From Coriobacteriaceae bacterium (GTDB lineage: Bacteria > Actinomycetota > Coriobacteriia > Coriobacteriales > UMGS124), in contig JAHZGC010000015.1 in the NCBI GenBank assembly GCA_019421015.1, forward strand, positions 15,795-79,794: DNA of 64,000 bases, read 5' to 3'. Each line of letters starts with the position of its first letter. Within the stretch, counting starts at the first letter, position 1. The notes under the pieces are model-generated. The model was given only the letters and a program-made list of their open reading frames with translations. It was not told where the DNA came from and searched no databases. This document shows positions 3,533-47,150 of the stretch, piece after piece. The translations under genes and the position numbers were made by a program.

Positions 3533-3676
3533 GGTGTTCTCTCCAATCGTCGATGTGCGTTTGTGCGCGGGTTCGGGTGCGAGCTCCGCGGCCCGGTGGG
3601 GGCGTGGCGTCGCTTGCTGGCCACAACGGTAGGACAGAGGGTCTAGACAAAGCATCGGTTGTGGGACGATGGGTGA

Positions 3677-3724
3677 GCTTATTTGCCTAAGCAGGTCTAT
3701 AAGCGTCTAAACATGCAGGTAGAT
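3677..3724 (-). promoter_or_regulatory. Candidate promoter/operator box upstream of the 1700-3532 reductase (site 1 of a recurring motif)
   Basis: The plus strand reads GCTTATTTGC-N13-TAAGCGTCT-N4-ATGCAGGTAGAT. The site upstream of the 7160-9808 gene (9914-9962) is nearly identical. In gene sense it reads ATCTACCTGCAT..AGACGCTTA..GCAAATAAGC and ends about 145 nt before the ATG. Confidence 0.4.
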
Positions 3725-3891: not shown

Positions 3892-5289
3892 GTGATCCAG
3901 AGTCTGTACAAGAAGCTCAAGTCTATCCCGCTGGTCCTTCTGGGCCTGGGCCTGTGCCGCGCCTGGTCGGTGGCCATGTTCTCGGGGGCGTATCCCAACG
4001 GCTTTGCGGGTGCGTTCATGCTCTTTGCGGCGAGTACCGCGGTGGGAGGCCTGGTGCTGGCCGCGCTGGCTCCAAGGGTTTCTCCGCTGTACAAGAACAA
4101 GCACCTGCTGCTTGCGGCCGCCCTGCTCATGGGGCTGGGGACCGCCGGCTTCGGGCTGTTTTCCTTTGCCATCCCCAACCAGGCCATCTTGGCCGTCATG
4201 ACCGTGGGGGCGGGCCTGGGCGGCGCGGTGCTGCAACTGGCTTGGTGCGAGTGCCTGGGATGCTTCAACCCCATGCGGGTGTGCCTGTACCACGCAGGGG
4301 CCATCGGGCTGGGGGCCGTGCTTGCGATTCTGATCTATGGGTTGGTGCCGTTGTGGGTGGCGGTGGTTTCGGTGATCCTGCCGCTCGTCTCGCTGCTGTG
4401 GTGTCACGAGGGTATCCAGCTTGCCGACGAGCGCGACCTGCCCACCGGTCGCAAAGACTCCGATGCCGTGACCTTTCCATGGAAGCCTGTGGCGCTCATG
4501 GCGGTGTGCGCGTTCGCTTCGGGGTTCAATAACATGGACATGCAGGGCGACGGCATGAACCTCATCGGCTCGCTCGGTGAGCTCTGCGTGATGGCCGCCG
4601 TGGTGCTGGGCGTGCTGGCCGACCGGCGGCGCTTCAACTTCGCCTCGCTCTTTAAATTCGCCATGCCGCTTACGGTGATCAGCCTCATGCTCGTTGTGCC
4701 GGCGCTGGGGTCGATGGCGCCCATTTCGGCGTTCTGCTACTCGGGCGGCGACGCGGCACTCTCGGTGCTCGTGATGGTCATCATGTGCAGCCTGGTGTAC
4801 CGCTTCGGCGTGAACGCCGTGCGCCTGAACGGCATCGAGCGCGGCGTGCGCTACCTGTGCCTGGCGGGCGGCTGGATGCTGCGCGAGCTTGTGGCGGGCG
4901 CGCTCACGGCCGAGGCGCTGGCCGTGGTGCAGGTCGTGGCGCTCGCCCTGGTGGTGGTGGCGTTCGTGGCCATCTTCTACACCGAGGACAGCCTGGCGTC
5001 GCTGTGGGGCGCGGCCGTGAAGACCGCCGAGGTCACCCCCGAAGCAGAAATGCGAGCCGCCCGGGCCATCGCGGCCGGACGACTCGCCAAGGAGTACGGT
5101 CTGACCCCGCGCGAGGGCGAGGTCCTGCAGCTGCTCGCCCAGGGGACGAGCCTGCTCGATATCGAGAAGAGCCTGTTCATCGCCCAGGGGACGCTGCGGG
5201 CCCACATCAACCACATCTACACCAAAATGGACATCCATAGCCGCGACGAGCTGCGGGGCCTCATCGAGAAGGCCGTGGAGGCGGTGTAG
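3892..5289 (+). CDS. Membrane-anchored LuxR-family transcriptional regulator (multi-TM N-terminus, C-terminal GerE/LuxR HTH)
   Basis: GTG start with GGAGGAAGG upstream. The N-terminal ~380 aa are hydrophobic. The C-terminus is YGLTPREGEVLQLLAQGTSLLDIEKSLFIAQGTLRAHINHIYTKMDIHSRDEL, a LuxR-type HTH. Divergent from the flavoprotein gene. Confidence 0.85.
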   Translation: MIQSLYKKLKSIPLVLLGLGLCRAWSVAMFSGAYPNGFAGAFMLFAASTAVGGLVLAALAPRVSPLYKNKHLLLAAALLMGLGTAGFGLFSFAIPNQAILAVMTVGAGLGGAVLQLAWCECLGCFNPMRVCLYHAGAIGLGAVLAILIYGLVPLWVAVVSVILPLVSLLWCHEGIQLADERDLPTGRKDSDAVTFPWKPVALMAVCAFASGFNNMDMQGDGMNLIGSLGELCVMAAVVLGVLADRRRFNFASLFKFAMPLTVISLMLVVPALGSMAPISAFCYSGGDAALSVLVMVIMCSLVYRFGVNAVRLNGIERGVRYLCLAGGWMLRELVAGALTAEALAVVQVVALALVVVAFVAIFYTEDSLASLWGAAVKTAEVTPEAEMRAARAIAAGRLAKEYGLTPREGEVLQLLAQGTSLLDIEKSLFIAQGTLRAHINHIYTKMDIHSRDELRGLIEKAVEAV

Positions 5290-5340
5290 GGGAGCGGGGA
5301 TGTGGAGGGGCGGCGGGATGACGCCGAAGACCCAGATACA

Positions 5341-5535
5341 TCCGCATAATCAGGGTTCTGGATAGGCGCGGGAACCGCGTTGGCGGTCGCGTTGGGCGAC
5401 AGAGAGCTCGAGTGGCTGGGGACGTTCGATAAAACCGCAGGTGAGCAGGGTGTTGGCTGCAGGGGGCTTCTCGCCTCGCGGTCGAGCCGGGAACATCGGG
5501 GCCCGGCGGCCTATCCAGAACCCTGATTATGCGGA
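5341..5535. repeat. MITE-like palindromic element with perfect 27-bp terminal inverted repeats
   Basis: TCCGCATAATCAGGGTTCTGGATAGGC at 5341-5367 is the exact reverse complement of 5509-5535. The element is 195 bp, with AACCGCAGGT (5433-5442) at the dyad centre (5438). It lies between convergent gene ends. No clear target-site duplication. Confidence 0.7.
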
Positions 5536-5616
5536 AAGATCTCGGGTTTTAGAACGTGCCCGATTCCCGGTTGCAAAGAGTGCTTGCCCGATTCCCGGCT
5601 TGCCTCGTCCGCGAAC

Positions 5617-6390
5617 CTACCTTCCGGTACCGCCCACGGCCGCCAGTTCGGCTACCACCTGGGCCGCCGCCTGCGGGTACAGCCGCGCCCTGCGTACCAG
5701 GGGAGAGGCCCCCAGCTCGTCGGAGAACCTCTCCGCCCACGGTCGCATGTGCTCGGTCGCAAAGGCGTCGCGCTCCGCCAACGCCGCGTCGCAGGAAGCC
5801 CGGTCGCCCCTGTCGAGCGCGTCGCAGGCTGCGTAGGTGAGCTCGGCCAAAAACGCCAGCTCAAAGGCCAAGTGATCGTCGGCCTCGTGGGGGTAACCGC
5901 TGGGGAGAAACCCGCGGGCCGCATAGGCCCTGCGCACCGCGAGCGTCTCGGAGCCAAAGAGCGCGCCGTCGGCCTCGAGGTAGCACGACCCCCAGGGCTG
6001 GGCTGACCTGGCCCCGGGCCTCTCAAGCAGCACGGTGTACTCGTCGCCAAGCCTGTCGAGCGTCGCGGCGGGGTCGCGCCCCCAGGCGTCGGTCAGCTCG
6101 GCGAGGGCGCGGGGAAGGGGGCCGTTGTCGGCCACGGGCACCTCGCCGTTGGCCACGGCGCCCCCGTCGCTCGGCACGTCGGCGCCGGCGCCCTCGAACA
6201 CCTGCGCCGCCTCGGGCCGGCCCAGCGCCGCGAGCAGCCCCTCGCTCGGCTTTTGGCCGAACACCGCCGCCAACAGCTCAAAGGCTCGTCCCTGCCGCTC
6301 GAGCTCTGCCGCCTGCGCTGCAGAGAAAACTCCGACCTCCGCGGTCTTCTCACCGCACGCCCTCTCGTCGCGTGCCCCCGCCGCGCCCAT
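5617..6390 (-). CDS. TorD/DmsD-family molybdoenzyme maturation chaperone
   Basis: Motif YPHEADDHLAFELAFLAELTY and the overall length fit TorD-like redox enzyme maturation proteins. The start ATG overlaps the stop of the upstream Fe-S gene (TAATG), which suggests translational coupling. Confidence 0.75.
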   Translation of the reverse strand: MGAAGARDERACGEKTAEVGVFSAAQAAELERQGRAFELLAAVFGQKPSEGLLAALGRPEAAQVFEGAGADVPSDGGAVANGEVPVADNGPLPRALAELTDAWGRDPAATLDRLGDEYTVLLERPGARSAQPWGSCYLEADGALFGSETLAVRRAYAARGFLPSGYPHEADDHLAFELAFLAELTYAACDALDRGDRASCDAALAERDAFATEHMRPWAERFSDELGASPLVRRARLYPQAAAQVVAELAAVGGTGR

Positions 6391-7159: not shown

Positions 7160-9808
7160 CTACTCGATTACGGGTATCACAGGGGGCTGCAGGTAGTCGG
7201 GCTCGAGCGGCTCGCCGTCCCAGGGCTCCACGTTCACGAGCACGGTGTTCGACGCGCACTGCCCCGCGCCCACCAGGATGCCGCCGGTCAGGGTGTTCAC
7301 GTTGCAGCCGCGGTCCACGCCGGTCTGTTCGTCCAGGGCGGTCCAGTTGCCCTGGCCCACCAGGACTACGCCCGGCATCACGCGCGGGGTGGTGCGCACG
7401 CGGCGCAGCGCCTGGCCGTGGTCGTTGGAGAGCAGCGCGGTCTGGCCCGACTCAAGGCCGGCGGCCGCGGCGTCGGCGGGGTTCATGAACAGGTCGTTCG
7501 AGAAGATCTCGTTCAGGCTCTTGACGTTGGGCATGGCCGAGTGGGCCTGGCGCGCCACGTGGATGCCGAGCATCTGGAAGGGGTGCGCGCCCTTCTGCTT
7601 GGCCTTCCAGTCGGCAAAGGTCTCCTCGTAGCCCTCCACGGCCGGCATGTACTTGGGGATGGGATCGATGGGCGTGGTGCCGTAGTTGTCCATGCGCTCT
7701 ACCAGGGCACGCGAGAAGATCTCGAGCTTGCCGGTGGCCGTGTCCACGGGGCACCCCTCGGGGTCGGCCTTGAAGTCGGCCAAGGCGCACCACTCCAGGG
7801 CGTCTCCCTCGCTGCGGGGCACCTGGTAGCCGCCGTTGGCGTGCAGCTCCTCCAGCGGCACGCGGCCGTCGTGGGGCTCGCAGGTCAGACCGTACTTCTC
7901 GATGTCCTCGGCGCTCACCTGGGCCAGCGGCTCCCAGCCCGAGCCGTCGGGGAGCATGACTTGGGCCTCCGCCACGAGCATGGCGGCGTCGGTCTCCTGG
8001 TCGGCCGGGGCCACGATAGCCGGGTCGATGCCCAAACGCTTGGCCAGCTCCACGTCGACCCACCAGTCGGGCTTGGCCTCGAAGCAGGGCTCTACGATCT
8101 TGCTGCCCCATACCACGGTCTCGGCGTTGATGGCGTCGGCGTAGCCGTTATCGCGCTCCCAGGGGGTGGCGATGGGCAGCACGATGTCGGCAAACTGTGC
8201 GTCGGGGCACATCACGAAGTCCGAGACCACCACGAAGTCCACCTTGCCCGGGGCCCGGTAGGCCTCGATGGCCGTGGTCTGGTCCACGTTCTGATTGAAC
8301 TGGCCGCTGGGCCCGATCTTGGCCAGGCACTTGATGTTGACCGTGCGCTCGCCGCGGGTGAAGTCGGTGTGTTTGCCGGTGAGCACAGCCTTCCAGAACT
8401 CGGCGTAGGCGATGCCGTAGTACTGCTCGGGGTCGTAGATGCCGTGCTCCAGCGCCCAGTCGCCGCGCGGCAGCGTGCAACCCACGTTCTCGATCCAGGG
8501 GGTCACGCCGTCGCCCAAGGCCACGAGCGAGCGGCTGCCCACCACGCCCTTGGAGCCGTCGGCGGTGCCTACCTCGGCGCCCGGCTCGCCCACGTTGCCG
8601 GTCATCCAGCCCACGGTGTAGAGCATGTGGGCCGTTTGGGCGCCGTTCCAAGTGCGGCCGATGGCCTGGCCGGCCTTGAGGGTCATGGGCTTCACCGTGG
8701 CCATCTGCTCGGCCAGGCTGCGGATCTGGGCCGGGTCGGTGCCGCAGATCTCGCTGGCCCACTCGGGGGTCTTGGGCACGCCGTCGTTGACGCCCAGGAT
8801 GTAGTCCTTGAAGTTCTCGGAACCATCCTCGCCCTCGGGCATGTGGTCGGCGTCGAAGCCCACGCAGTGGGTGTCCAGGAACTCCTGGTCCTGCCAGCCG
8901 TTCTCGATCATGGTGTAGGCGATGGCGGCCAAAAGCGCGCCGTCGGTGCCGGGGCGCACGGGCACCCATTCGTCGGCCAAGCTCTGGCAGCTGGGGCTGA
9001 ACCACGGGTCGACCACGATCACCTTGGCACCGGCGTCCTTGGCCTGGCGCAGGTAGTGGGTGTTGCTGCCACCCAGCGAGTAGATGGGGTTCAGGCCCCA
9101 CAGCACGATGAGCTTGGCCTTGCGCAGGCTCAGGCGGTCATTGTTGCCCTTGCCGTAGCTGCCGTTCACCGTGTTGCCCACCAGGGCCCAGCCGCCCTGG
9201 GACTGCTGGCCCCAGATGCTCGTGTAGCCGCCCGAGGCGGAGAGGATGCTCACCGGCGCGAGGCTCGGCGAGGCGATCGAGAGGTCGCCGTAGGTGGAGC
9301 GGATGCGCGTGAACTCGCTCGCGATGTAGTCGAGCGCCTCGTCCCACGAGATGCGCTCCCACACGTCGCGGCCGCGCAGGGAGTTGTCGCCCGTACCGCC
9401 CGGCTCCCAGTGCTTGCGCTTCATGGGGTAACGCAGGCGGTCGGTGCCGCATACGAGCTGACGCAGGCTGTGGCCCTTGACGCAGCTGCGCTGCTGGGGA
9501 AAGTCGGGGGTGTCGGGGTGGCTGTCGTCGGTCTTCTGGCGCACCACCAGGCCGTCGACCACGTAGGCCTTGTTGATGCAGCCGCAGTGGCAGGTCATCC
9601 AGCAGCCGGCCGTGCGCCACTCGCCGCCGTCGAGGTCCAGGGCGTCGAGCCGCTCGTCGGTGGCCTTCTCGAGCGCACGGGCCGAAGGCGCGTTCACGAG
9701 CGTGGCCCCTCCCAGGGCCGCCAATCCAGCCACGAAGTTGCGACGGGTCAGATGGGGTACGCCGGAGGCGGTGGTGCTATTGCTTTGCGTGGGTGCCGTA
9801 GGTGCCAT
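7160..9808 (-). CDS. Tat-signal molybdopterin oxidoreductase catalytic subunit, DMSO-reductase family (DmsA-like)
   Basis: ORF 7160..9874, with the start trimmed to ATG 9808 (GAGGAG upstream). Signal LTRRNFVAGLAALGGATLV. N-terminal Cys group GCWMTCHCGC (C-x3-C-x3-C, DmsA type). Large conserved MopB-like body, followed by Fe-S and TorD-like genes. Confidence 0.85.
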   Translation of the reverse strand: MAPTAPTQSNSTTASGVPHLTRRNFVAGLAALGGATLVNAPSARALEKATDERLDALDLDGGEWRTAGCWMTCHCGCINKAYVVDGLVVRQKTDDSHPDTPDFPQQRSCVKGHSLRQLVCGTDRLRYPMKRKHWEPGGTGDNSLRGRDVWERISWDEALDYIASEFTRIRSTYGDLSIASPSLAPVSILSASGGYTSIWGQQSQGGWALVGNTVNGSYGKGNNDRLSLRKAKLIVLWGLNPIYSLGGSNTHYLRQAKDAGAKVIVVDPWFSPSCQSLADEWVPVRPGTDGALLAAIAYTMIENGWQDQEFLDTHCVGFDADHMPEGEDGSENFKDYILGVNDGVPKTPEWASEICGTDPAQIRSLAEQMATVKPMTLKAGQAIGRTWNGAQTAHMLYTVGWMTGNVGEPGAEVGTADGSKGVVGSRSLVALGDGVTPWIENVGCTLPRGDWALEHGIYDPEQYYGIAYAEFWKAVLTGKHTDFTRGERTVNIKCLAKIGPSGQFNQNVDQTTAIEAYRAPGKVDFVVVSDFVMCPDAQFADIVLPIATPWERDNGYADAINAETVVWGSKIVEPCFEAKPDWWVDVELAKRLGIDPAIVAPADQETDAAMLVAEAQVMLPDGSGWEPLAQVSAEDIEKYGLTCEPHDGRVPLEELHANGGYQVPRSEGDALEWCALADFKADPEGCPVDTATGKLEIFSRALVERMDNYGTTPIDPIPKYMPAVEGYEETFADWKAKQKGAHPFQMLGIHVARQAHSAMPNVKSLNEIFSNDLFMNPADAAAAGLESGQTALLSNDHGQALRRVRTTPRVMPGVVLVGQGNWTALDEQTGVDRGCNVNTLTGGILVGAGQCASNTVLVNVEPWDGEPLEPDYLQPPVIPVIE

Positions 9809-9913
9809 GGGTCTCCTCTTCCTCTTGTTGCCGTTGGTTCGCTCTTGCTGCGATCCGGTGCCCACAATAGGCAAGGGCGTCCGGCGGCGAATCAGCGACG
9901 GGAGGTGGAGGTG

Positions 9914-9962
9914 GCTTATTTGCTACTTACGGGCGTGTAAGCGTCTGTTTATGCAGGTAGAT
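9914..9962 (-). promoter_or_regulatory. Candidate promoter/operator box upstream of the 7160-9808 operon (site 2)
   Basis: GCTTATTTGC-N14-TAAGCGTCT-N4-ATGCAGGTAGAT, matching site 1 (3677-3724) block for block. The ATGCAGGTAGAT block starts 143 nt upstream of the ATG. Confidence 0.4.
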
Positions 9963-10059: not shown

Positions 10060-10283
10060 TGGACGAAATCGGAGGAATGCGACTTTGCAGGGGGTGCGCG
10101 TGGACGAGATCGGAGGAATGCGACGCGGTTTTGGGAGTCTGCCGGCGGATCGCGGATAAGCTCTCCCCTTTTACCAGGGGAGATACCCGCATCACCAATC
10201 GTGCTACCGACAAACCACGTCGCAAACTTCCTATCTCGTCCACTGCTGTCCTGCCAAAAGTCGCAAACCTCCGGTTTCAGCCA
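10060..10283. repeat. Symmetric four-unit array (2 direct + 2 inverted 24-bp units)
   Basis: Units: TGGACGAAATCGGAGGAATGCGAC (10060-10083), TGGACGAGATCGGAGGAATGCGAC (10101-10124), and the inverted copies 10219-10242 and 10260-10283. Spacing is 41 bp in both arms. Outer and inner pairs share one dyad centre (10171.5), which falls in the hairpin TCTCCCC..GGGGAGA. Confidence 0.7.
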
Positions 10284-12244: not shown

Positions 12245-12292
12245 GATGGGGTACCTCTCCCTCTCTCTTGCGGGGGTTCGCCGTTTTCCAAG

Positions 12293-12377
12293 GGGAACCG
12301 TCTCTCGCAAGGCGTCGGGAGGCGATGCGTACTGGTGGTACGTGAGCCTCCCGGGAACGCGGCGAGAGACGGTTCCC
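12293..12377. repeat. Nested-hairpin repeat, family 1, copy A (between the catalytic and Fe-S subunit genes)
   Basis: Perfect 16-bp outer stem GGGAACCGTCTCTCGC / GCGAGAGACGGTTCCC. Inner stem TCGGGAGG/CCTCCCGG around the conserved core GATGCGTAC-TGGT-GGTACGTGAG. Related copies at 25887-25964 and 47151-47222. Confidence 0.75.
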
Positions 12378-12383
12378 AACTCG

Positions 12384-14789
12384 CTACGCCGGGATCTCGG
12401 ACTCGTCGAGCTTGCTGATCTTGACGAGCGTCTGCTTGGCCATGGCGGAGTGGAAGCGGTCGAACTTCTCGATCGTCGAGTCGTAGAGCACGTTGACCTC
12501 GCTGCCGCCGTCGGTGCAGCCGTAGCCGGGCAGGCCCAGCTCCTCGCAGCTCTGCCACCAGCCGCGGCGGCTCATGAGCACGTCGGGCGGAATGGTGGGC
12601 AGTACGCGTGCCACGAGCTTGACCCAGCCGTGCAGGCTCTCGACGCGGCACCAGTCGCCGTCCTCGATGCCGTACTGGGCGGCCGTGGCCGGGTTGATCT
12701 TGAACCAGGGCTCGGGCTGCATCTCGCGCAGGTAAGGGATGTTCACATAACAGCTGTGGTTGGCCAGGCGGTAGGCGTGGACGTCCGAGAACACCAGCGG
12801 GTATTCGTCCACCAGCTCGGGGGTCTCGGCGATGCCCTCGGGCGGACCCTGGTAGATGGGCAGGTAGGGAAGCACGTCGAGCTCAAGGTTGTCGAGCTTG
12901 CCGCCCATGTACTCGTTGTAGCACTGCACCTTGCCGTTGGGGAGCTTCTCAAAGAGCTCCGCGTAGCGCCGGTACTCGGGCTCGGTGGGCTCGGCGCCGT
13001 CGGTGCGCTCCACGAAGATGGAGCCCTTCTCGCGCAGCTCGTCGAGGTCGATGCCGGTGCCGTCGAGCTGCTCGCGCAGGCAGGCGTCCATGTCGCCGCC
13101 CCAGAAGTCGTCGCCGTAGCCCATGGCCACGGCCAGGTCAAGGTAGAAGTCCCAGTCGCTCTTGCCCTCGCCGATGGGGTCCACGACGACCTGGTTCATG
13201 CCGATCCAGGTGCCGGCCTTGGAGTTCTTGGTGGCGAACTGCTGGCTCGTCTCGTAGTTGGTGAGTGCCGGCAGCACGATGTCGGCGTAGTCGCACGAGG
13301 GGTTCCACGCGGTGTCGACCACCACGTAGTAGTCGAGCGCCTTGAGGCACTCGATGATCTCTTTGGGCTGGCGCGTGGCCGAGAGCGGGTTGGAGTTCTG
13401 GCCGATGACGCAGCGCAGCGGGTAGGGCTCGCCGGTCAGGATGCTCTTGAACGCCTTGTGGTAGGCGCTGGTGGGGCCGGGGCCGCCGCCAAAGGTGTAG
13501 GAGTTCTGGTACCAGCGGGGGAACTCGTTGGCCACGAGCTTGCTCATGCCGGCAGCGTAGCCCTTCTCGACGTCCTCGTCGGTGGCCTCGAGGCGCTCGG
13601 TGAGCATCGAGACGGGGTTGGTCTTGAAGAGGGGAGCGGGAGCCACCTTACCGGCGCCGCCGCCGCCCGGGATGTCGAGGTTGCCGGTGATGGCCTCGAT
13701 GAGGCAGATGCAGATGCAGGCCCAGTTGCCGTCGTTGGCCTGGTCGCCGATGCCGTTGCCGTAGAGGATGCCCATGGGCTTGGTGGTGCCCATCTTGCGG
13801 GCCACCTCAAAGATCTGCTCCTCGGGGATGCCGGTTATGGGAGAAGCCCACGAGGGCGGGAACTGCTTCACGTGCTCGGCCAGCTGGTCAAAGCCGTTGC
13901 ACCAGTTCTCGGTGAAGTCGTGGTCGTAGAGGTCCTCCTCGCAGATCACGTTAAGCACCGCAAGGGCCAGCGCCAGGTCGGTGCCGGGGCGCACGGGCAC
14001 CCAGATGTCGGCCTTGGAGCCGATGCCCTCGCGCATGGGGCGGATGTCGATGAGCTCCATGCCGCGGTCCAGGGCGTCCATGATGGCCTTGGGCTTGCCG
14101 CGGTTGATCTCGGAGTTCTCGGGGTTGGCGCCCCAGATCACCAGGAGCTCGGTCTTGTCGAGCTGGGCGGGGTAGGTGTCGGCCGGTTTGCCGATGCTGA
14201 TCACGCGGCTGGCGGCGCGCTGCATGGCGCAGATGGCGCTGTGCATGTAGTTGGGGCTGCCGTGCACGTTCAAGAAGCGACGGCCGAGCGTCTGGATAAC
14301 GGCCCACGCCTGGGGCGAGAGGATGCCCAGGCTCTCGGGGCCGTAGAGCTCCTTCTGCTCGAGCAGCTTGGCCGCGATCTCCTCGATGGCCTCGTCCCAG
14401 GTGATGCGCTCGAACTTGCCCTCGCCCTTCTCGCCCACGCGCTTCATGGGGTAGAGCAGGCGGTCGGCCGCGTAGGGCACCTGCATGGCCGAGTTGCCCT
14501 TGGCGCACAGCGAGCGGCTGCCGCGGCCCCAGTTGTTGCCGGCCTCGGGGTTGCCCTCGACGTTGGCGAAGCGGCCGTCCTTGAGGTGGCACAGCGTGGA
14601 GCAGTACGTGCAGGCGGGGCCGCACATCTGGCAGAACGCGTGGCGCACCTCGTCAGAGCCCTCGGAGCCTTCCAAGGCCTGGGCTGGACGCTCCTCGAGC
14701 CAGGTTGTGCCCCCTGTCGCCGCGAGCGCGCCGAGCGCGGCGCCGGCGGCCAAAAAGCCACGGCGGCTGAGGTTGCTCGTCATGTTCAT
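12384..14789 (-). CDS. Tat-signal molybdopterin oxidoreductase catalytic subunit (DMSO-reductase superfamily, Psr/Phs/acetylene-hydratase-like size class)
   Basis: MNMTSNLSRRGFLAAGAALGALAATGG twin-arginine signal. N-terminal Fe-S motif CQMCGPAC...C. 801 aa MopB-like protein. Substrate cannot be assigned from sequence alone. Confidence 0.85.
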   Translation of the reverse strand: MNMTSNLSRRGFLAAGAALGALAATGGTTWLEERPAQALEGSEGSDEVRHAFCQMCGPACTYCSTLCHLKDGRFANVEGNPEAGNNWGRGSRSLCAKGNSAMQVPYAADRLLYPMKRVGEKGEGKFERITWDEAIEEIAAKLLEQKELYGPESLGILSPQAWAVIQTLGRRFLNVHGSPNYMHSAICAMQRAASRVISIGKPADTYPAQLDKTELLVIWGANPENSEINRGKPKAIMDALDRGMELIDIRPMREGIGSKADIWVPVRPGTDLALALAVLNVICEEDLYDHDFTENWCNGFDQLAEHVKQFPPSWASPITGIPEEQIFEVARKMGTTKPMGILYGNGIGDQANDGNWACICICLIEAITGNLDIPGGGGAGKVAPAPLFKTNPVSMLTERLEATDEDVEKGYAAGMSKLVANEFPRWYQNSYTFGGGPGPTSAYHKAFKSILTGEPYPLRCVIGQNSNPLSATRQPKEIIECLKALDYYVVVDTAWNPSCDYADIVLPALTNYETSQQFATKNSKAGTWIGMNQVVVDPIGEGKSDWDFYLDLAVAMGYGDDFWGGDMDACLREQLDGTGIDLDELREKGSIFVERTDGAEPTEPEYRRYAELFEKLPNGKVQCYNEYMGGKLDNLELDVLPYLPIYQGPPEGIAETPELVDEYPLVFSDVHAYRLANHSCYVNIPYLREMQPEPWFKINPATAAQYGIEDGDWCRVESLHGWVKLVARVLPTIPPDVLMSRRGWWQSCEELGLPGYGCTDGGSEVNVLYDSTIEKFDRFHSAMAKQTLVKISKLDESEIPA

Positions 14790-14981: not shown

Positions 14982-15004
14982 AAACGCTTTAATCGCAGGT
15001 AGAC
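14982..15004 (-). promoter_or_regulatory. Candidate promoter/operator box upstream of the 12384-14789 operon (site 3)
   Basis: AAACGCTTTAATCGCAGGTAGAC. In gene sense this is GTCTACCTGCGATTAAAGCGTTT, about 200 nt upstream of the ATG. It shares TCTACCTGC and an AGCGTTT/AGACGCTTA-like block with sites 1 and 2. Confidence 0.35.
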
Positions 15005-17802: not shown

Positions 17803-19182
17803 ATGGGGGCGTGCATGCCGGTGACCACCGAACGTGGATGGCGTTTGCTGCCCGAGCGAAACATGGCATGGGCACTGGGCGTTTCTCCACTGCTGATCTG
17901 TGTGTTCCAGTTTCTCTTTTATACTCCCAGCTCGGTCGAGGCGGCCAAGTCGGCGCTGCTGTACGGTGCCGCCCTGGTGGGATCTATTGCGGGCTGTTTG
18001 GTATGCATGGTGGCGGCACGCAGGGGAGGGGGACGAAGCCGGGCTCTTGCGGTTGGTTTTGGCTGTATGCTTGAGGCCGCATGGATCATCCTGTTGGTGG
18101 ACTATCGAACCCAAGGATTGCCGACGTGCATCGCATCGTTCTTCGTGGGTGCGTCGGCAGTGGGCCTGCTCGTGCTGTGGGCGTGCGTGGACCGTTCAAA
18201 GAGCCCTCGTTGCGAGTTGGCTCAGTGTGCTCTGGCGGTCGCGGTCGCCTTTGCCATGCAGATGGTGTTTAACGGGGCGCTCAATTTGTCGTTTTTGAGT
18301 CACGCGTGCACCGTGCTGACGACGGCGCTCCTGGTCGTGTTTCAAACAAAGCTCCGAGACGACCCGGGCGCGGACGACATGCGTAAACAAAGGGCCGGTG
18401 ATGCCCGGTATTGCTTAAAGAGTTCTTCTTGGCTGGTCAGCATCGTCGTTGTGGGTGTCCTCGGTGCGGGTTTGGCCGTGCTGGGGCACGGAGGCCACCA
18501 TATCGAATATGCCGCGGGGCTGTTGTGCGTCATGAGTGCCGTCCCCCTTTTTGCACGAGGAGAACAATCCTTCCCGCTGCTTGGCGTAGAGGCGCTCCCG
18601 GCCTCCATGGTGGCGCTGTGCGCGGCGGCCCTGCTCGACAGCATGCTCCCCTTCGTGCTTTACATGGCGGCGGTGTGCCTGTTCTTGATGTGGACGGTGC
18701 TGCACGATCGCGTAGAAGGGCAGATGCTTGCGGCCGCAGACCTGGGGGAGACGGCCCGCAGCGTGCTGTGGGTTACGGTCGCACTGGCGGTGGGGTTTGC
18801 GGCGGCGTGCTGTGCCTTGCGGGCGAGCGACTGCACGATGGTGCAGGCGTGTATGGTGCTTGTCGCGTTGCTCGCCGTGGCCGGCTATGCCTGGCTTACC
18901 GTGCTGTTTGTGTTTGACGACCGGGTGCACGGCGATAGGGCGTCCGTCGAGGGGGACGTGAAAGGGGCGTTTGCGGCATGGGGGTTTTCTCCTCGTGAGG
19001 CCCAGGTGGGCCAACTGCTTTATGAGGGGCATAGCCTCGACGAGATTTGCCGTGCGCTTGACATGGCCGAGGGGACGGCTAAAACCCACGTGCGCCACAT
19101 CTACGAGAAGAGCGGGACACACAGCAAGGTGGAGCTCCATATAGCCGTGAACAAGAGGCTGGGCAGCCCCGACCGCGCGTGA
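17803..19182 (+). CDS. Membrane-anchored LuxR-family transcriptional regulator
   Basis: Hydrophobic N-terminal ~380 aa. C-terminal GFSPREAQVGQLLYEGHSLDEICRALDMAEGTAKTHVRHIYEKSGTHSKVEL. Divergent from flavoprotein 15944-17467. The exact start is uncertain (alternative ATGs at 17815 and 17863). Confidence 0.8.
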   Translation: MGACMPVTTERGWRLLPERNMAWALGVSPLLICVFQFLFYTPSSVEAAKSALLYGAALVGSIAGCLVCMVAARRGGGRSRALAVGFGCMLEAAWIILLVDYRTQGLPTCIASFFVGASAVGLLVLWACVDRSKSPRCELAQCALAVAVAFAMQMVFNGALNLSFLSHACTVLTTALLVVFQTKLRDDPGADDMRKQRAGDARYCLKSSSWLVSIVVVGVLGAGLAVLGHGGHHIEYAAGLLCVMSAVPLFARGEQSFPLLGVEALPASMVALCAAALLDSMLPFVLYMAAVCLFLMWTVLHDRVEGQMLAAADLGETARSVLWVTVALAVGFAAACCALRASDCTMVQACMVLVALLAVAGYAWLTVLFVFDDRVHGDRASVEGDVKGAFAAWGFSPREAQVGQLLYEGHSLDEICRALDMAEGTAKTHVRHIYEKSGTHSKVELHIAVNKRLGSPDRA

Positions 19183-19202
19183 CCCTCTCGTCTACCGCGC
19201 CC

Positions 19203-20786
19203 CTATGCTCCCAGATCCTCCACCATGTCGAGCAGCCCCTGGCGATTGCGGACGCCCATCTTTTGGTAGATGTGCCGCGTGTGGGTGCTTACCGTGCCCT
19301 GCGAGATGTGCAGCTCCTCCTGGATGCGGGCTATGGTGCGTCCTTTGATGATGAGCGGCAGCACCTCGGCCTCGCGCGGGGTGAGCCCGTAGCGCCCTGC
19401 GAGCAGGCTGGCCACGGCGGCGGTGCGGTCCTCGCGCGGCGCGGACGTCCCGTCCCCTCTTTCGGCGGTGTCGGGCTCGCGGTAACCCTCTGCGCTCCCG
19501 CCCTCTTCGTCGGTCATCTCGCCGAGGCTCGTCTCGGTCAGGTCCTTCTCGGTGAAGAGAAAGAGGTTTGCGACCACGATGATTAAGGTGAGCACCAGGG
19601 CAACGACGTTCAGATGGGCCACGCCCATCCCCATGACGTCTACAAGCAGATGGCCCAGGCCGTTGCCGGCCAGCTCCCCGGCGTACAGGGCGCAGAAGGC
19701 AAGGCCAAAGGTGCGCGTCGCATATTGGTCGAAGTAGTTGCTGATGTCGATGCACACCGCGCTCAGGACCACGGCGAAGGCCGTGTACGCCCCAAAGACG
19801 ACCACGTTCGAGTAGATGAACGAGCCTCCGAACACGAAGGGCGTCATGAGGCAGCCCACGGCCATGAGCAGGGTGGTCGCCCGGTAGGCGTAGGTCACAA
19901 AGCCGTGTTTGCAAAAATGGGCCACGGCGAGGGCCACGGCAACGACGGCCACGACGCCCAGGGCGAGCAGGACCTCGTAGTGCTGGGGCACAGGAACGAA
20001 CTTGAACCCCGTGAGCACGTCTGAAAAGCCCGCCACCAGGCCAAACAGTGCGCAGGCCGCCAGGCCGCGGGCGAACATGCGCCGGGTGCGCCGCATGAGC
20101 CCGTGGGGGCGCGCAGGACGGGGCCGCTCCGGTCGGTGGAAGGCGGCCCGACGCAAGAGCCATCCCGAGGCGCCCACGCCGAGCAGCACCGCCACGCTTG
20201 CGGCCAGCGGGGGTACCAGCGAGAGCACGATGTCGAGCGCGGCCGCCGCCATCCAGGCGAGCGATATCTCGGCCATGGCGCGGCGGGCCCCCACATCGCT
20301 GTAGAGGCGTCCCCAGCCCAAAAAGAGCGTGCCCGAAGCGAGGCCGGTGCCCACGGCACTCACCACGATGAGCACCGCGCTCAGGCCCTCGATGGAGTTC
20401 ACGAACAGAAGCAGCGACGTGGAGGCCACCAGGGCCGCGGTGGCGCCTGCGATGACGTTGCGCGAGAGCACCCGCTTGTCAGAGTTGCGCACGGCAAAGG
20501 AGAAGGACCCCAGCGCCACGGCGAGCAGGGCCAGGGAGAGCATCTGGTCAAAGTAGAGCACCGGCCGTGTCTCCCCCTCGGCCGAAAGAAAGAAGAACGT
20601 GTTGTAGAAGATGGCGCACAGCCACAGGTTGTACAGCGCGTAGCCCGCGATGCGCAGGGCCGAGAGCGGCCGGGGTGTGGCAGGTCCCGCCTCGCCGCCG
20701 CGCGTCTGCAGGACGTCGGCCGACGGCGTGCTGCGGTTTTTTTCGGCCATGGCGGCGACGCTGCGGCGCACTCCTGCGATGCCCAT
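19203..20786 (-). CDS. Membrane-anchored LuxR-family transcriptional regulator
   Basis: ORF 19203..20819. ATG 20786 is preferred as the start (GGGAGAGAGGGAA upstream). Multi-TM body. C-terminal YGLTPREAEVLPLIIKGRTIARIQEELHISQGTVSTHTRHIYQKMGVRNRQGL. Divergent from the 21236 operon. Confidence 0.8.
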   Translation of the reverse strand: MGIAGVRRSVAAMAEKNRSTPSADVLQTRGGEAGPATPRPLSALRIAGYALYNLWLCAIFYNTFFFLSAEGETRPVLYFDQMLSLALLAVALGSFSFAVRNSDKRVLSRNVIAGATAALVASTSLLLFVNSIEGLSAVLIVVSAVGTGLASGTLFLGWGRLYSDVGARRAMAEISLAWMAAAALDIVLSLVPPLAASVAVLLGVGASGWLLRRAAFHRPERPRPARPHGLMRRTRRMFARGLAACALFGLVAGFSDVLTGFKFVPVPQHYEVLLALGVVAVVAVALAVAHFCKHGFVTYAYRATTLLMAVGCLMTPFVFGGSFIYSNVVVFGAYTAFAVVLSAVCIDISNYFDQYATRTFGLAFCALYAGELAGNGLGHLLVDVMGMGVAHLNVVALVLTLIIVVANLFLFTEKDLTETSLGEMTDEEGGSAEGYREPDTAERGDGTSAPREDRTAAVASLLAGRYGLTPREAEVLPLIIKGRTIARIQEELHISQGTVSTHTRHIYQKMGVRNRQGLLDMVEDLGA

Positions 20787-20963
20787 GCGGTTCCCTCTCT
20801 CCCGTGATGGGGCAAGCATACCTCATAGGGGCCGCCCGTTTCTCCCGGCGGCCGTGCAAAGGTGTCGCAACTTTTTATGATAGGTGCCCGGCGCGTGCCG
20901 CACGGGGGGCTCGCCTGCGGTGCGTCTGCCAGAACGGCGGGGCGGCCCCTGTGGGGTGCCCGG

Positions 20964-21005
20964 GACGCTTAATAGATAAAAAACAAGGCGTTTACCTGCG
21001 TCGAT
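20964..21005 (+). promoter_or_regulatory. Candidate promoter/operator box upstream of the 21236 operon (site 4)
   Basis: GACGCTTAAT..GGCGTTTACCTGCGTCGAT in an A+T-rich patch, about 236 nt upstream of the ATG. It carries TTTACCTGCG in gene-sense orientation plus a GACGCTTA block, as in sites 1 and 2. Confidence 0.35.
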
Positions 21006-25801: not shown

Positions 25802-25886
25802 CTGCTTGCTTCGCGTGAGCCGCCCGGTCCTCCCCGTGGGCCGGGCGGCCGCGAAAGCCTCTGGTGAGGTACTGGCGATTTGTGGC

Positions 25887-25964
25887 GGGCGCCGCTCGCC
25901 GCGTTCCGCAGGCGCTCACGTACGTCCAGTACGCATCGCGCCTGCGCGCCTCGCGACCGGCGCC
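25887..25964. repeat. Nested-hairpin repeat, family 1, copy B (reverse orientation on the plus strand)
   Basis: GCGTTC-CGCAGGCG-CTCACGTACG-TCCA-GTACGCATCG-CGCCTGCG-CGCCTC is the reverse complement of the copy A/C layout. The inner stem has a different sequence but is still perfectly paired (CGCAGGCG/CGCCTGCG). It lies between the anchor gene and the polyferredoxin gene. Confidence 0.75.
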
Positions 25965-26114
25965 TTTGCTTAAGAGGACGGCGGCCAGTAGGCGTTCTGC
26001 ACCTCTCAGCTTCTCACCAGGGGCTTTCGCCGCGACGCCGCGGGTGTGGCCTCCCCGGTCCTGCTCGCGGAGTTGTTCCCCGTGCCCATGTTCGTATCCC
26101 CGAAAGGAGCTGCC

Positions 26115-27328
26115 ATGACCAGTGCTGCCCGCAACGTGCTCGGCGTGCTCGAGCGCTTGGAGGGCCCCGACGTGGCGGTGCACCAGATGCGCTGCATCGA
26201 CGTGCGCAACCGCAACGCCGGCTGCACCGCCTGTGCAGACGCCTGCACGAGCGGCACGATCAGCCTCGAGGACGGGCTGCTGAGCGTGCGCCCCGAGCTC
26301 TGCATTGGCTGCGGCACCTGCGCCACCGTGTGCCCCACCTGCGCCCTCGAGGCGCGCCATCCCACCGACGAAGACCTTTTGGCGAGCTGCCTTGCCGCCA
26401 TGGAGGCTTCCGGCGGACACAGCCTGCTCGTGCTGTGCTCCAAGAACGCCGACGGTGCCTTCGGCCGCTACGACGAGGCCGTCTGTGCCGTGGTCGGCTG
26501 CCTGGGGCGCCTCGACGAGAGCCTGCTTGCCGGTCTGGCCGCCCGCGGCTGCGAGTCGGTCGAGCTGGTGGTGCGCGGCTGCGAGGGCTGCGCCCATGTG
26601 AGCGGTCTGCGTACCGCCGAGGCGGTGTGCGCCAGCACCTCCGAGCTGCTCGAGGCCTGGGGCAACCCCATCTCCATCGCCCTGGTCGACGACATCCCCG
26701 CCTGGGCCCGCTCCACCGCGCCGCTGGGCATGGTTTCCGAACGCCCCGCGGTGGCACCCGATGCCCAGGGTTTCTCCGCCGGTGACCTTTGCGCCTGCGA
26801 CGCCGAAGCCGTTTCCGAAGCGCTTGAGGCCGCCCTGCTTGGGGCACCGTCTCCTGAGGACCCCGCCGCCCCGGTAGGGGAGAAGGCCCCGGAGCGCAGC
26901 CTGCCCCAGAAGGTGGGGCGCGACGGCACCCTTGCCCACCACAAGCCCACGCGCCGCGGGGTTCTTCTCCAGGCCCTGGGCGAGCTGGGTGAGCCGGCCC
27001 CCGTCACCGTGAGTACCCGCCTGTGGGGCGCCCTCTCCATCGACACCGAGGCCTGCGGGTCGTGCCGCCTGTGCGCGGTGTTCTGCCCCACGGGTGCCCT
27101 GCGCAAGTTCGACGACCGCGCGACTGCGTGCATTGCGGCTGCTGCGAGGCCATCTGCCCCAAGGGCGCCATTCACCTGGCAAACGAGGTCTTTGCCCCCG
27201 ACCTGGTCGACGGGCATGTGGAGCGCTTCGAGATGCGCCCGCAAGAGATCGTGTCCGGCAAGGCGACCACCGTGGTGAACAAGATGCGCAAGCTGCTCGT
27301 GGGCTCCAAGGCCGTCAACTTCGCCTAA
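26115..27328 (+). pseudogene. Polyferredoxin-like protein (two 2x[4Fe-4S] modules) with an apparent single-base frameshift near 27116-27122
   Basis: Start ATG 26115 (AAAGGAG upstream). N-terminal CTACADAC and CIGCGTCATVCP. Near the C-terminus CGSCRLCAVFCP is in frame A, while the partner motif CVHCGCCEAICPKGAIHL and the natural-looking end ...KAVNFA-stop (27328) are in another frame (track ORF 27023..27328). The switch point is the CGCGCG tract at 27116-27121. Confidence 0.65.
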
Positions 27329-27411
27329 GGCTCGCGTGCGGTGAGTGCTTCCCGGAGTAAAAAACCAGCCGAGGGTGCGATGGCCAGGGCTGGCGATTTG
27401 GCCCGGATTAC

Positions 27412-27554
27412 AAAAACCGGCCGAGGGCGTGACGATATCTCGAAAATTTATATAAATCTGAGAAAAATTCACGCTTTACCTGCGGTTCTTTTTCTATCCT
27501 CCACATATATTTAATCAAAAATCGCAGCAAGTCACACCCTCGGCGCGTTTTTGG
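27412..27554. repeat. Dyad-symmetric element flanking an A+T-rich promoter-like core (also site 5 of the TACCTGC box)
   Basis: AAAAACCGGCCGAGGGCGTGAC (27412-27433) faces GTCACACCCTCGGCGCGTTTTTGG (27531-27554). A third, direct copy AAAAACCAGCCGAGGGTGCGA starts near 27360. ACCTGCGGTT (27478-27487, reverse complement of AACCGCAGGT) spans the dyad centre (27483), about 207 nt upstream of the 27692 ATG. Confidence 0.6.
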
Positions 27555-27691: not shown

Positions 27692-28543
27692 ATGAACGCT
27701 GCCCCTTTGAACCCCAACGCCTACGAGGCCTCCGACGACCTGGTGCTCGACGACGGCTTTGACCCCCTGGCCTGCGAGGGAGCCGACCGCGACGAGACGG
27801 TCGCCGGCATGGCGGGTACCGCCGCCGAGGCCGAGCGCGAGGCCGCCCCCGACGAGGAGGACGTGCTGCCCTACCTGGGCGACCCCGACGCGAACCACAT
27901 CCCCGAGCCCGTGGTCGACGACCGTCCCGCCTCGGTGCGCACCGAGGAGCTCTTCAGCCGCATGAAGCCGCGCCGCAGGGTGCTGCTCGGCGTGCTCGAC
28001 CTGTGCCGCGAGCCGGCCGGGGTCGACGCCGTGAACGCCCGCATCGACGAGCTGCAGTCCGAGCAGCGCTCGGTCTTTGACGGCGCCGCCCTCACCGCGC
28101 TGCTGGAGCGCGCCGGTGCCCTCGAGAAGCTCCAGGACGTCGAGGAGCAGGAGCCTCGGACCGTGGTGGTCGACGGCGTGGAGTATCTGGAGCCGGCGGC
28201 CAAGATCGAGGTGCGCTACCGCACCACCGAGGCCGGCCAGGCCATGCTCGACGCCGACCGCCCCGCGGACCTCCTCCACGAGGTGTTGGAGCGCGACGCC
28301 GTGTACAAGCCCATCTACCTGCGCATCCTCAAGGCCTGCGACGAGGAGGGCGGCAAAACTGCCAAGGAGCTGGGCGCGCTCGTGGACTCCGACCCCCTGG
28401 TGCAGCAGCCGCGGTTTTGGGCCGCCCACTTCTTCAACATCCTGGGCGAGTGCGACGCGCTGACCTGGAACCGCACCTGGCAGACCACCGACCTGGGGCG
28501 TACGGCCATCGAGGAGCTCGAGCTCGAAGGCGTCAGCGCCTAG
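27692..28543 (+). CDS. Hypothetical protein: acidic N-terminal region followed by two possible winged-helix-like segments
   Basis: AAGGAGA RBS. The N-terminal ~80 aa are rich in D and E. Later segments RRVLLGVLDLCREPAGVDAV and IYLRILKACDEEGGKTAKELGALV resemble wHTH recognition regions, but this is only a weak pattern-level call. Confidence 0.5.
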   Translation: MNAAPLNPNAYEASDDLVLDDGFDPLACEGADRDETVAGMAGTAAEAEREAAPDEEDVLPYLGDPDANHIPEPVVDDRPASVRTEELFSRMKPRRRVLLGVLDLCREPAGVDAVNARIDELQSEQRSVFDGAALTALLERAGALEKLQDVEEQEPRTVVVDGVEYLEPAAKIEVRYRTTEAGQAMLDADRPADLLHEVLERDAVYKPIYLRILKACDEEGGKTAKELGALVDSDPLVQQPRFWAAHFFNILGECDALTWNRTWQTTDLGRTAIEELELEGVSA

Positions 28544-29341: not shown

Positions 29342-29365
29342 AACCGCACCGCCTGTGCGACGGGG

Positions 29366-29465
29366 GGCGATTCGCAGAATCGCCGAGACAAGGCGCGCGA
29401 GGGCGCGGTGTGCCGGAGCACATAAGCCCGAGCGGAACGCAGTATCGGCGATTCTGCGGATCGCC
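29366..29465. repeat. Nested-hairpin repeat, family 2, copy D
   Basis: Outer inverted repeat GGCGATTCGCAGAATCGCCGA / TCGGCGATTCTGCGGATCGCC. Inner AAGGCGCGCGAGGG-CGCGGTGTGC-CGGA-GCACATAAG-CCCGAGCG-GAACGC. Second copy at 47795-47901. It shares AAGGCGCGCGAGGG and GAACGC with family 1. Confidence 0.75.
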
Positions 29466-29591
29466 CCGGGGCTCTGCGAAGAGGGACGGCCCGGCATTGG
29501 GCACACGGGGAGGGCCGTCCCTCCCCTCAGGGCCCCGGTCCGCAGGCGGCTGGCAGATCTTCTCGGCACGATTCGGTAGGGAGATTTCAGT

Positions 29592-33670: not shown

Positions 33671-33801
33671 GGGAGAAGAGCGCGAGACTTTGCCTGAACA
33701 GCGCAGGCCGCGGGGCTCTCACTCACGCCTGCGGCTTGCGCTGCATTTCTTGGGTTTCTTCCGCCGCGGAGTATGCAATTTAGCCGGAAGGGCCCAAAGC
33801 T

Positions 33802-33974
33802 GGCCGCATCGCGGCATCGTGCGGGGTCGGTCGGGCCTTTGGTGCTTCCTCAGAGGTCGGTTCTAAGCCTGCCAGATTAATCAAATTACTAAAACCGCAG
33901 GTACCATCGACGGGACTATGATGGCATGGGAGGCGTGCGGCCTGGGACATCCCGCACGACCCTCGCATGCGGCC
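33802..33974. repeat. Imperfect dyad-symmetric element between convergent genes
   Basis: GGCCGCATCGCGGCATCGTGCGGGG (33802-33826) faces CCCGCACGACCCTCGCATGCGGCC (33951-33974). An A+T-rich core contains AACCGCAGGT (33893-33902) close to the centre (33888). Confidence 0.5.
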
Positions 33975-34095
33975 ACCAAAGGTGCCCAATGTCCAAAAAC
34001 GCCCCCGAACCCGCATCTTGCACGGGTCCGGGGGCGCACATGAGCCCTTGGGAGCTCTGCTGTTGCTGGCGGTGCGCCGCCGCGCCCACAGGCCT

Positions 34096-38678: not shown

Positions 38679-38755
<77 letters not shown>

Positions 38756-42397: not shown

Positions 42398-42512
42398 CTT
42401 CCGGTCCTTTCCTCGTCACCCAAATCCAACGACGATTCTAGGCCGGCCGGGCCGCGCGAGGGGGGGGAGGGGGCATGCCCCCTCCCCCCTCGTACACCAC
42501 TTCTCGTCACAC
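41146..42512 (-). mobile_element. IS256-family insertion sequence (~1.37 kb)
   Basis: Imperfect terminal inverted repeats at 41146-41175 (..GCGTGCCGATTTGTGGTGTATGAGGGGG) and 42485-42512 (reverse complement GTGTGACGAGAAGTGGTGTACGAGGGGG), with a 16-bp core GTGGTGTAYGAGGGGG. Flanked directly by 14-bp direct repeats TTCCTGCCTGTGGA (41132-41145 and 42513-42526). Confidence 0.75.
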
Positions 42513-42522
42513 TTCCTGCCTG

Positions 42523-47098: not shown

Positions 47099-47150
47099 TC
47101 CAAAGGCGTCCCCGCAATTTGGCGAGACGGACACCCGATAAAAAGAGAAT

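Follow-up and report, generated by a model that had tools for sequence, protein, structure and literature searches.

Palindromic intergenic repeats carrying a promoter-like box at their centres in the reductase and LuxR gene region of a gut member of the Eggerthellaceae

Several molybdopterin reductase (Mo-reductase) and flavin reductase operons, each with GerE/LuxR-family genes, lie in the 64,000-nucleotide stretch of DNA analysed here, which we call the window (positions 15,795 to 79,794 of contig JAHZGC010000015.1, assembly GCA_019421015.1). The window belongs to a high-GC gut bacterium of the Eggerthellaceae whose closest named relatives are Adlercreutzia, and human metagenome assemblies hold contigs identical to it. 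Present in its intergenic regions are long dyad-symmetric elements, four of which (E1 to E4) carry the 10-mer AACCGCAGGT at or near the symmetry centre, and a fifth (E5) of similar build is without the exact 10-mer. The elements and their central boxes are as follows.

E1, 5331-5545, unstranded: 37-nt arms at 5331-5367 and 5509-5545, centre 5438.
E1 central box, 5430-5443, + strand: TAAAACCGCAGGTG, reading CACCTGC GGTTTTA on the - strand; the dyad centre (5438) is the box centre.
E2, 27360-27553, unstranded: 23-nt arms at 27411-27433 and 27531-27553, centre 27482.
E2 central box, 27477-27490, + strand: TACCTGC GGTTCTT, the reverse complement of AAGAACCGCAGGTA.
E3, 33801-33975, unstranded: 25-nt arms at 33801-33825 and 33951-33975, centre 33888.
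E3 central box, 33890-33903, + strand: TAAAACCGCAGGTA; core 10 bp right of the centre.
E4, 42523-42766, unstranded: 78-nt arms at 42523-42600 and 42689-42766, centre 42644.5; a dyad of 2+2 units.
E4 central box, 42631-42644, + strand: TAGAACCGCAGGTA, reading TCTACCTGC GGTTCTA on the - strand; core 5.5 bp left of the centre.
E5, 10060-10283, unstranded: a dyad of 2+2 units, centre 10171.5, without the exact 10-mer.

The elements measure 140-280 bp, have arms that are 71-100% complementary, and contain no open reading frame (ORF) with coding-type GC content at third codon positions. Their general build is one or two inverted units of 25-35 bp per side, placed ~45-75 and ~90-125 bp from the centre, and the sequence of these units is specific to each element family. 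E1 occupies the gap towards which a LuxR-family gene (3892-5289, +) and a NarJ/TorD-like chaperone gene (5617-6390, -) converge. In it, the perfect 27-bp terminal inverted repeats around 5438 reported in a first-pass annotation of this DNA were recovered (5341-5367 and 5509-5535) as part of longer, 37-nt arms. The same annotation placed two elements between convergent gene ends; this holds for E1, while E2 lies between two co-directional genes (26046-27278 and 27692-28543, both +), and its sense-strand box precedes the start at 27692 by 215 nt. E2 has a third arm copy, a direct repeat of its left unit, 51 bp upstream at 27360-27380. E3 lies upstream of a large LuxR-family (GerE) gene starting at 33967 or 33989; both of its arms read TGGCCGCAT-N7-TCGTGCGGG, and its box forms the right side of an inner inverted repeat, CCTGC...GCAGG, with an AT-rich 24-nt loop between. 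E4 is set between an IS256-family insertion and a MarR gene, and each of its arms consists of two direct 27-bp units 51 bp apart (42523-42549, 42574-42600, 42689-42718 and 42740-42766; consensus TGGACrrnATCnnGACTTTCTyGACCG). E5, upstream of a Mo-reductase operon, has the units TGGACGArATCGGAGGAATGCGAC at 10060-10086, 10100-10131, 10212-10243 and 10257-10283 and only a degenerate box at its centre, TTTTACCAGGGGAG, which on the other strand reads TCTCCCCTGGTAAAA followed by GCTTAT. An unbiased scan ranks E1, E2 and E4 within the seven strongest wide dyads of the window. Six elements occur in ~50 kb of LuxR- and reductase-rich DNA and none in the ~26 kb of housekeeping DNA next to it. The sequence GCCCGATTCCCGG is present as two direct copies, 30 bp apart, in the interval from E1 to the stop codon of the NarJ-like gene (5559-5600). 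An apparent 56-nt inverted repeat at 19056-19314 is not an element: two LuxR genes converge there (17803-19182, +; 19203-20819, -), and the repeat is formed by the parts at their ends that encode the GerE helix-turn-helix.

The association of the 10-mer with dyad centres is real and more general than first described. AACCGCAGGT was recovered at the four reported sites, 5433-5442 (+), 27478-27487 (-), 33893-33902 (+) and 42634-42643 (+), against an expectation of 0.16 copies and never more than one in dinucleotide-preserving shuffles of the window, and, in line with the claim, each of the four copies stands in a wide dyad, at a distance of 0 to 10 bp from its centre. It had also been claimed that the elements have unrelated arms and only the 10-mer in common. 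The first part stands, in that E1-E5 show no significant pairwise similarity outside the core and no single consensus of the REP/BIME or ERIC type; the second does not, as anchored alignment extends the common core to WARAACCGCAGGTR, and E1 and E4 have about 25 nt in common around it. The resulting central box of ~14 bp, TArAACCsCAGGTr (yACCTGsGGTTyTw on the other strand, that is, yACCTGs followed by GGTTyTw), lies at or within about 10 bp of the symmetry centre and contains the heptamer TACCTGs, often as TCTACCTGC. Within it is a mini-palindrome, ACC-GCA-GGT, whose middle base is the arm-defined centre of both E1 (5438) and E2 (27482). Dyad symmetry was then scored around box matches, as the annotation had proposed. 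In 190 kb of this species and its close relatives, 7/7 matches to AACC[GC]CAGGT (6 distinct sites) lie no more than 12 bp from a dyad scoring at least 18/24, whereas none of 108 chance 10-mer matches in unrelated genomes reaches that score (best, 17/24). The statistical link between this build and the box spans three related species. Random positions in the window reach 18/24, the level of E3, in 3% of trials and 20/24 in 0.75%. A scan of 185,579 species genomes for AACCGCAGGTNNNCAGGGTG gave 105 matches, all by chance and in unrelated taxa, and its sole match in the Coriobacteriaceae falls within a priA-like coding sequence.

Several identities tried for the box were rejected. A Hin/Gin crossover site (AAACC-GA-GGTTT) resembles the left half only; the consensus for integration host factor (IHF) is approached by the E3 family only, and Actinobacteria are not known to have IHF; sigma-54, sigma-28 and extracytoplasmic function (ECF) promoters do not fit in spacing; a GNA-triloop DNA mini-hairpin (C-GCA-G) at the apex is incompatible with the CCA variants; and a match as antisense to the 3' end of 16S rRNA fits the E. 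coli sequence and not the actinobacterial one.

The heptamer of the dyad centres also heads a promoter-like element of ~50 nt, cATCTACCTGC-N8-ACGCTTA-N13/14-GCAAwTAAGc, with the general form TACC(T/A)G(C/G)-N8-nnGCTTA-N13/14-..TAAG. It was found at 13 sites in five species, always upstream of reductase genes adjoining a LuxR gene. These sites, and two related boxes in the window, are as follows (L numbers denote loci of related species).

Promoter-like element of the Mo-reductase operon, 9913-9962, - strand: ATCTACCTGC-N8-ACGCTTA-N14-GCAAATAAGCC, ~150 nt upstream of the start codon at 9808.
Promoter-like element of the flavin mononucleotide/flavin adenine dinucleotide (FMN/FAD) reductase gene, 3676-3724, - strand: upstream of the called start at 3532.
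Promoter-like elements of the related loci: L112 650, 1567 and 7720; L113 584 and 6682; L116 163 and 6009; L118 203 and 6317; L199 4748 and 10517.
TCTACCTGC box, 14995-15003, - strand: context gTCTACCTGCGATT, 214 nt upstream of the second Mo-reductase gene (12384-14789, -).
TTTACCTGC box, 20991-20999, + strand: 246 nt upstream of the third Mo-reductase gene (start 21237, +).

The sites at L112 650 and 1567 are duplicates of each other. The Mo-reductase and FMN/FAD-reductase genes concerned lie on either side of one orthologous LuxR gene and have the element 150-230 nt upstream; it is probably the target promoter of that regulator. It can be read as a -35 region CTTAyA, a 16-17 bp spacer and a -10 region TAAGCy, which would place the heptamer at about -56 to -47; the transcription start is predicted ~55 nt downstream of ATCTACCTGC. 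The boxes at 14995-15003 and 20991-20999 both lie outside any dyad, and the third Mo-reductase gene is divergent from the LuxR gene at 19203-20819 (-). TCTACCTGC has six copies in the window and the 8-mer CAGGTAGA seven, against 0.69 expected for the latter; four of these copies are at promoter or dyad sites, and beyond E4 they stand on the sense strand 150-250 nt upstream of three reductase genes, with TTTACCTGC at a fourth. The heptamer at 9913-9962, TACCTGC, is the same as at dyad centres, and overall the start of the promoter-like element and the dyad centres have up to 11 identical bases. Variants of the heptamer recur at both kinds of site: the dyad centre of L112a, described below, and the promoter of that species have ATCTACCTGCG in common; in L199, TACCTGG stands at both promoters and ACCTGG at the dyad centre; and TACCAG variants occur at one promoter (L116) and at the centres of E5 and of the L112n dyad described below. 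The second block differs, with GGTTyTA abutting the heptamer in dyads and ACGCTTA 8 bp away at promoters. The corresponding promoter box of Adlercreutzia equolifaciens is degenerate, and no dyads came to light in that species.

Orthologous and paralogous loci of related species, gathered through protein lookups, revealed further dyads with the box and with unrelated arms, as well as second copies of individual elements. In the species of L112 and L113, whose NarJ is ~71-75% identical to that of the window, the gap between the NarJ and LuxR genes holds a 2+2 dyad with TGGACAGATG... units (L112n/L113n), the exact centre of which in L113 (4970) reads AAACCCCAGGTAGA. Another family of that species, L112a/L113b, with GTGGCGGATCGTCCAGGGATGTGTACGA units, is found upstream of its Mo operon and at a second locus; identity between the two copies is ~85% over 250 bp and complete at the centre, TCTACCTGCGATGATAC, and in L113b ACCTGCG lies exactly at the centre (8998.5). 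In a third species (L199), a dyad upstream of the Mo operon has GAAACCCCAGGTC as its centre (4362). The NarJ-LuxR gap measures ~300 bp or more where it contains an element, in the window and in L112/L113, compared with 6 bp in L116-L118; in L199 it is 120 bp long and has no dyad. E3 recurs in diverged form, as E3b, ~2.6 kb left of the window (L111:19039-19213). Between these two copies, arms, subterminal regions and flanks match in one orientation and the central ~50 bp in the other; E3b modelled as E3 with this segment flipped scores 113, and the unflipped orientations score 61 and 45. The edges of the inverted segment are the small inner inverted repeat, a pattern that hairpin-mediated template switching produces, and such switching would explain the random-looking orientation of the core among elements. 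A metagenome contig scan with the 4Fe-4S subunit yielded two short contigs from the species; its other matches were distant relatives from the environment. A strong dyad in an Adlercreutzia-like genome (L201 15947-16095; 28-nt arms, 93% complementary; centre ACACCAGCTGGGGAAACATCTGGTTC) may be remotely related to the element family, its box having diverged.

The arms were also examined for signs of an RNA helix. Among 95 arm mismatches, 18 are G:T, 15 are A:C and 62 are other, the random 1:1:4 ratio; the arms hold direct repeats, which pairing does not require; and the copies within a family drift around the unit consensus with no paired changes. These three observations argue against an RNA helix, and we conclude that the arm units are DNA-level repeats, of a kind that would bind protein. 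Folding z-scores against shuffles are -8.2 for E1, -4.6 for E2, -6.7 for E4 and -1.9 for E3, but any DNA palindrome folds better than its shuffles. The Rfam comparison proposed in the first-pass annotation gave no match for the elements at the gathering threshold or at E ≤ 5. Two hairpin families of the same window contain compensatory changes, which makes the contrast with the dyad arms informative. The family F3 (12290-12385, +; 47140-47235, +; 25875-25975, -) lies just 3' of operons, has an invariant apex, GATGCGTACTGGACGTACGTGAGC, and has compensatory double changes at 10/33 predicted pairs in three copies; it matches nothing in Rfam and resembles an undescribed structured RNA or a REP-like element. 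The family F2 (29364-29467 and 47794-47902), also without an Rfam match, combines a core of ~60 nt that is nearly identical between its copies, AAGGCGCGCGAGGGCGCGGTGTGC..GCACATAAGCCCGAGCG..GTATCGGC, with an outer stem in which five compensatory changes separate them.

Collectively, these comparisons lead us to favour, tentatively, a model in which E1-E4 would belong to a previously undescribed, lineage-restricted superfamily of palindromic intergenic repeats that work as double-stranded DNA, being dispersed protein-binding modules whose apex is a transcription-factor or promoter box with a predicted binder. The dyad centres carry the box of reductase promoters, which makes the box a candidate docking site for a regulator. 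In this model the arm units would be binding sites for family-specific proteins and the central box a docking site for a common transcription protein, the likeliest candidate for which, judged from context, is the GerE/LuxR-type helix-turn-helix of the many membrane-bound LuxR regulators; an RNA-polymerase-associated factor is an alternative candidate. The first annotation's pointer to LuxR-type regulators turns out to be apt. The elements would have been copied around the genome in the manner of a miniature inverted-repeat transposable element (MITE) or foldback element, and would now provide extra protein-binding platforms near reductase and LuxR loci, whether as regulator docking sites, decoys or loop anchors. 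The elements are, like MITEs, small, non-coding and bounded by terminal inverted repeats. Second copies of two families (E3/E3b and L112a/L113b) were seen in ~85 kb of this species and the fetched loci of relatives, and short-read contigs break at element edges. Of the three first-pass suggestions, a MITE family with a conserved protein-binding core is the closest to the evidence and is supported in part, by the non-coding sequence, the inverted-repeat ends, the copies in at least two families, the empty orthologous sites and the promoter-box core; target-site duplications at most elements and, in the DNA searched, an autonomous partner are missing.

Several points weigh against this model. 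Flanking 5-bp direct repeats occur at only 2/9 elements, CAAAG in the E3 family and CCGGC in L112n/L113n, and visual inspection found none at E1, E2, E4, E5, L113b and L199. CAAAG was rejected as a target-site duplication of E3: it is present in the same relation to the arms in both E3 and E3b and so may be part of the element. Neither the window nor the fetched loci nor the plasmid collection yielded an autonomous element with such ends, and E1 and E4 had no match in the plasmid collection either. Observed copy numbers are low, and the copies, with 15-20% divergence, are old. Polymorphism between strains, which the first-pass annotation proposed as a sign of mobility, did not appear: at E1 and E4, where it was checked, there is no presence/absence difference and all assemblies are identical, the E1 sequence being the same in five other assemblies of the species. 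Outside coding-like sequence the heptamer by itself shows no enrichment (7/23, p = 0.24), so the promoter link rests on the longer, 8-12 nt matches, in only two or three species. Several elements lie between convergent 3' ends, where no promoter is expected; the orientation of the core relative to neighbouring genes is likewise inconsistent. The binder of the box and of the units is putative. Finally, the elements upstream of the Mo operons of three species have, on visual comparison, an ATCG...GTGTACG / GCGAC unit pattern in common and may be orthologous, which would favour conservation in place over mobility. The whole-length similarity of paralogues and the empty sites lean towards mobility, and the unit pattern of the elements upstream of Mo operons, compared by eye, leans towards conservation in place.

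An alternative of the latter kind, which we consider unlikely, is that the elements are non-mobile cis-regulatory operator arrays that evolved in place. Paired family-specific operators around a generic box would form a looped complex with a regulator, for example each LuxR paralogue, with loops as in gal or nag repression, and duplicated copies would mark members of a regulon. The constancy of unit geometry across families (±45-75 and ±90-125 bp), the identity of the centre with the promoter heptamer, the upstream element with common units at the Mo-reductase operon of three species, the enrichment in the LuxR/reductase region, and the sense-strand boxes of E2 and E4, which like those of the promoters precede a gene by 215-250 nt, are all consistent with such arrays. 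They are harder to reconcile with E1, L113n, L113b and L199-E, which point into gene 3' ends, with the orthologous operon of L116/L118, which has the promoter and no dyad, and with paralogous copies that are alike over their whole length; the similarity includes the spacers between units, which argues for duplication of the whole element. A further reading, of which we are equally doubtful, would make TACCTGs the generic recognition box of the transmembrane LuxR-type regulators that switch on diet- and drug-metabolising reductases in gut Eggerthellaceae, and the palindromes mobile or duplicated carriers with paralogue-specific operators, a portable module rewiring, titrating or looping LuxR-controlled loci.

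Equally improbable to us is that the elements are plain MITEs or foldback transposons, with arms that are transposase-binding ends, a coincidental likeness to the promoter box, and a centre conserved only as a hairpin apex (ACC-sCA-GGT) or as the site of a transposition cofactor. Their terminal inverted repeats, size and lack of coding capacity would fit, as would the two binding-site-like units per end with TGG..CCA termini, the multi-copy families with empty orthologous sites and the contig breaks at element edges, and Correia elements with a central IHF site are a precedent. However, consistent target-site duplications and an autonomous partner are missing from the material described above; families and species agree in the centre and not in the ends, the reverse of what ordinary MITE families show; and chance is an unlikely source of the 9-11 nt identity with promoter boxes. 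The only transposase in the window, of the IS256 family, has inverted repeats unrelated to the element arms, and derivation of the elements from this neighbour was rejected for that reason. The IS256/Mutator-family insertion itself (41149-42513; transposase ORF 41102-42397, -) abuts E4 and recurs in three other assemblies. The direct repeat on its two sides, TTCCTGCCTGTGGA (41133-41146 and 42514-42527), measures 14 bp, more than the usual 8-9 bp duplication, and the transposase ORF runs ~48 nt beyond the inverted repeat into flanking DNA.

Far less likely still are invertons or other site-specific recombination sites, in which inverted repeats would flank a flipping segment that turns an internal promoter. 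The first-pass annotation had raised a recombination or transposition site, and the inverted centre of E3 relative to E3b, edged by the inner inverted repeat, lends this indirect support. The perfect 27-bp inverted repeats of E1, the promoter-related box and the random-looking core orientation among elements would fit an inverton. Yet only one orientation is present in five to six independent assemblies of E1 and in three of E4, the sole inversion seen being an evolutionary one between the paralogues E3 and E3b; no recombinase gene was found close to any element; a single invertase could not recognise arms that differ from element to element; and the E3 inversion covers the inner part only and not the whole segment between the arms, as fits template switching. 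Least probable of all is the structured RNA that the annotation also listed, long hairpins in 5' or 3' untranslated regions whose conserved apical loop would serve mRNA stability or protein binding: the strong folding of E1, E2 and E4 and their probably transcribed surroundings are what would be expected of it, but it is disfavoured by the absence of a G:U preference among arm mismatches, by the modest score of E3, by the directly repeated units, by paralogous copies without the compensatory change seen in F2 and F3, by a core strand that differs between elements relative to transcription, and by the negative Rfam result.

Some other features were noted in and beside the window. ARAGORN and Rfam agree on a tRNA-Met (38679-38755) and a one-piece transfer-messenger RNA (53025-53380, -); an ARAGORN tRNA-Ser(gct) inside a Mo-reductase coding region (9034-9108, +) is without Rfam support and is probably a false positive. 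Type I-E CRISPR-associated genes (cas2, cas1, cas6e-like and cas5; L001 13816-16195) lie ~2-4 kb left of the window start.

Reductase operons number in the dozens in the Eggerthellaceae and act on drugs, dietary polyphenols and neurotransmitters; every one is paired with a LuxR-type regulator of an unusual, membrane-bound kind. In the literature on the motif, on MITEs and on LuxR binding sites in this family, we found no published description of the elements or of the box. The membrane-bound LuxR-type regulators have been established genetically, with no DNA site reported (PMC9734109), and the motif matches in the supplement of that paper are only PaqCI cloning sites in primers. The box that heads reductase promoters in five species is a testable candidate for the DNA site of the LuxR regulators and, if it is their site, would allow regulons to be predicted from sequence. 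Moreover, the elements invert the usual logic of MITEs, with a conserved centre and variable ends, and would be a useful case of regulatory sites and palindromic repeats spreading together.

Known systems resemble the elements in part. The ssoA origins of rolling-circle plasmids are imperfect palindromes of 150-250 nt with unconserved stems and a conserved CS-6 sequence in the terminal loop. The elements are similar in their variable stems and short conserved central sequence, but ssoA is plasmid-borne, strand-specific and single-copy, whereas the elements lie on the chromosome in both orientations and carry direct repeats inside their arms. In the repression loops of gal (OE/OI with HU) and nagE-nagB (with CAP), operators ~90-115 bp apart lie symmetrically around a site for a different protein, much as the inner units here lie ~80-100 bp apart around the box. 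Those loops are formed at promoters by single-copy operators of 16-20 bp, unlike the elements, several of which lie between convergent gene ends and have diverged duplicates. As to the box itself, the NarL/GerE family recognises the heptamer TACYYMT in a 7-2-7 arrangement, and lux-type boxes read ACCTG...CAGGT. TACCTGs fits the NarL heptamer at 5/7 positions and begins like the lux/las-box half-site ACCTGC, and it stands upstream of anaerobic reductase operons adjoining GerE-domain regulators; unlike those boxes, it has no 7-2-7 or 20-bp palindromic arrangement, being one half-site whose partner blocks are not an inverted copy.

Among repeats, ERIC/IRU and BIME-1 (RIP) of enterobacteria are imperfect intergenic palindromes of ~100-130 bp, often at operon ends. 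ERIC has a well conserved central part and BIME-1 a central IHF site between inverted REP units. They and the elements are alike as intergenic palindromes with a conserved centre, but no sequence similarity to ERIC/IRU or BIME-1 and no Rfam match was found, and where these families have one whole-element consensus per genome, the arms here are family-specific units of 25-35 bp, often two per side. The best analogue is provided by the Correia elements (CREE/NEMIS) of Neisseria, which are short, non-coding and intergenic, have inverted-repeat ends and, in the long form, a central IHF site, and can contribute promoter elements: like them, the repeats described here are palindromes with a central, here putative, protein site. 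Correia elements have ends conserved in all copies, are flanked by TA duplications and number hundreds of copies; here the ends vary by family and only the centre is common, there is no consistent duplication, few copies were observed, and the central box is a promoter-type heptamer rather than an IHF site.

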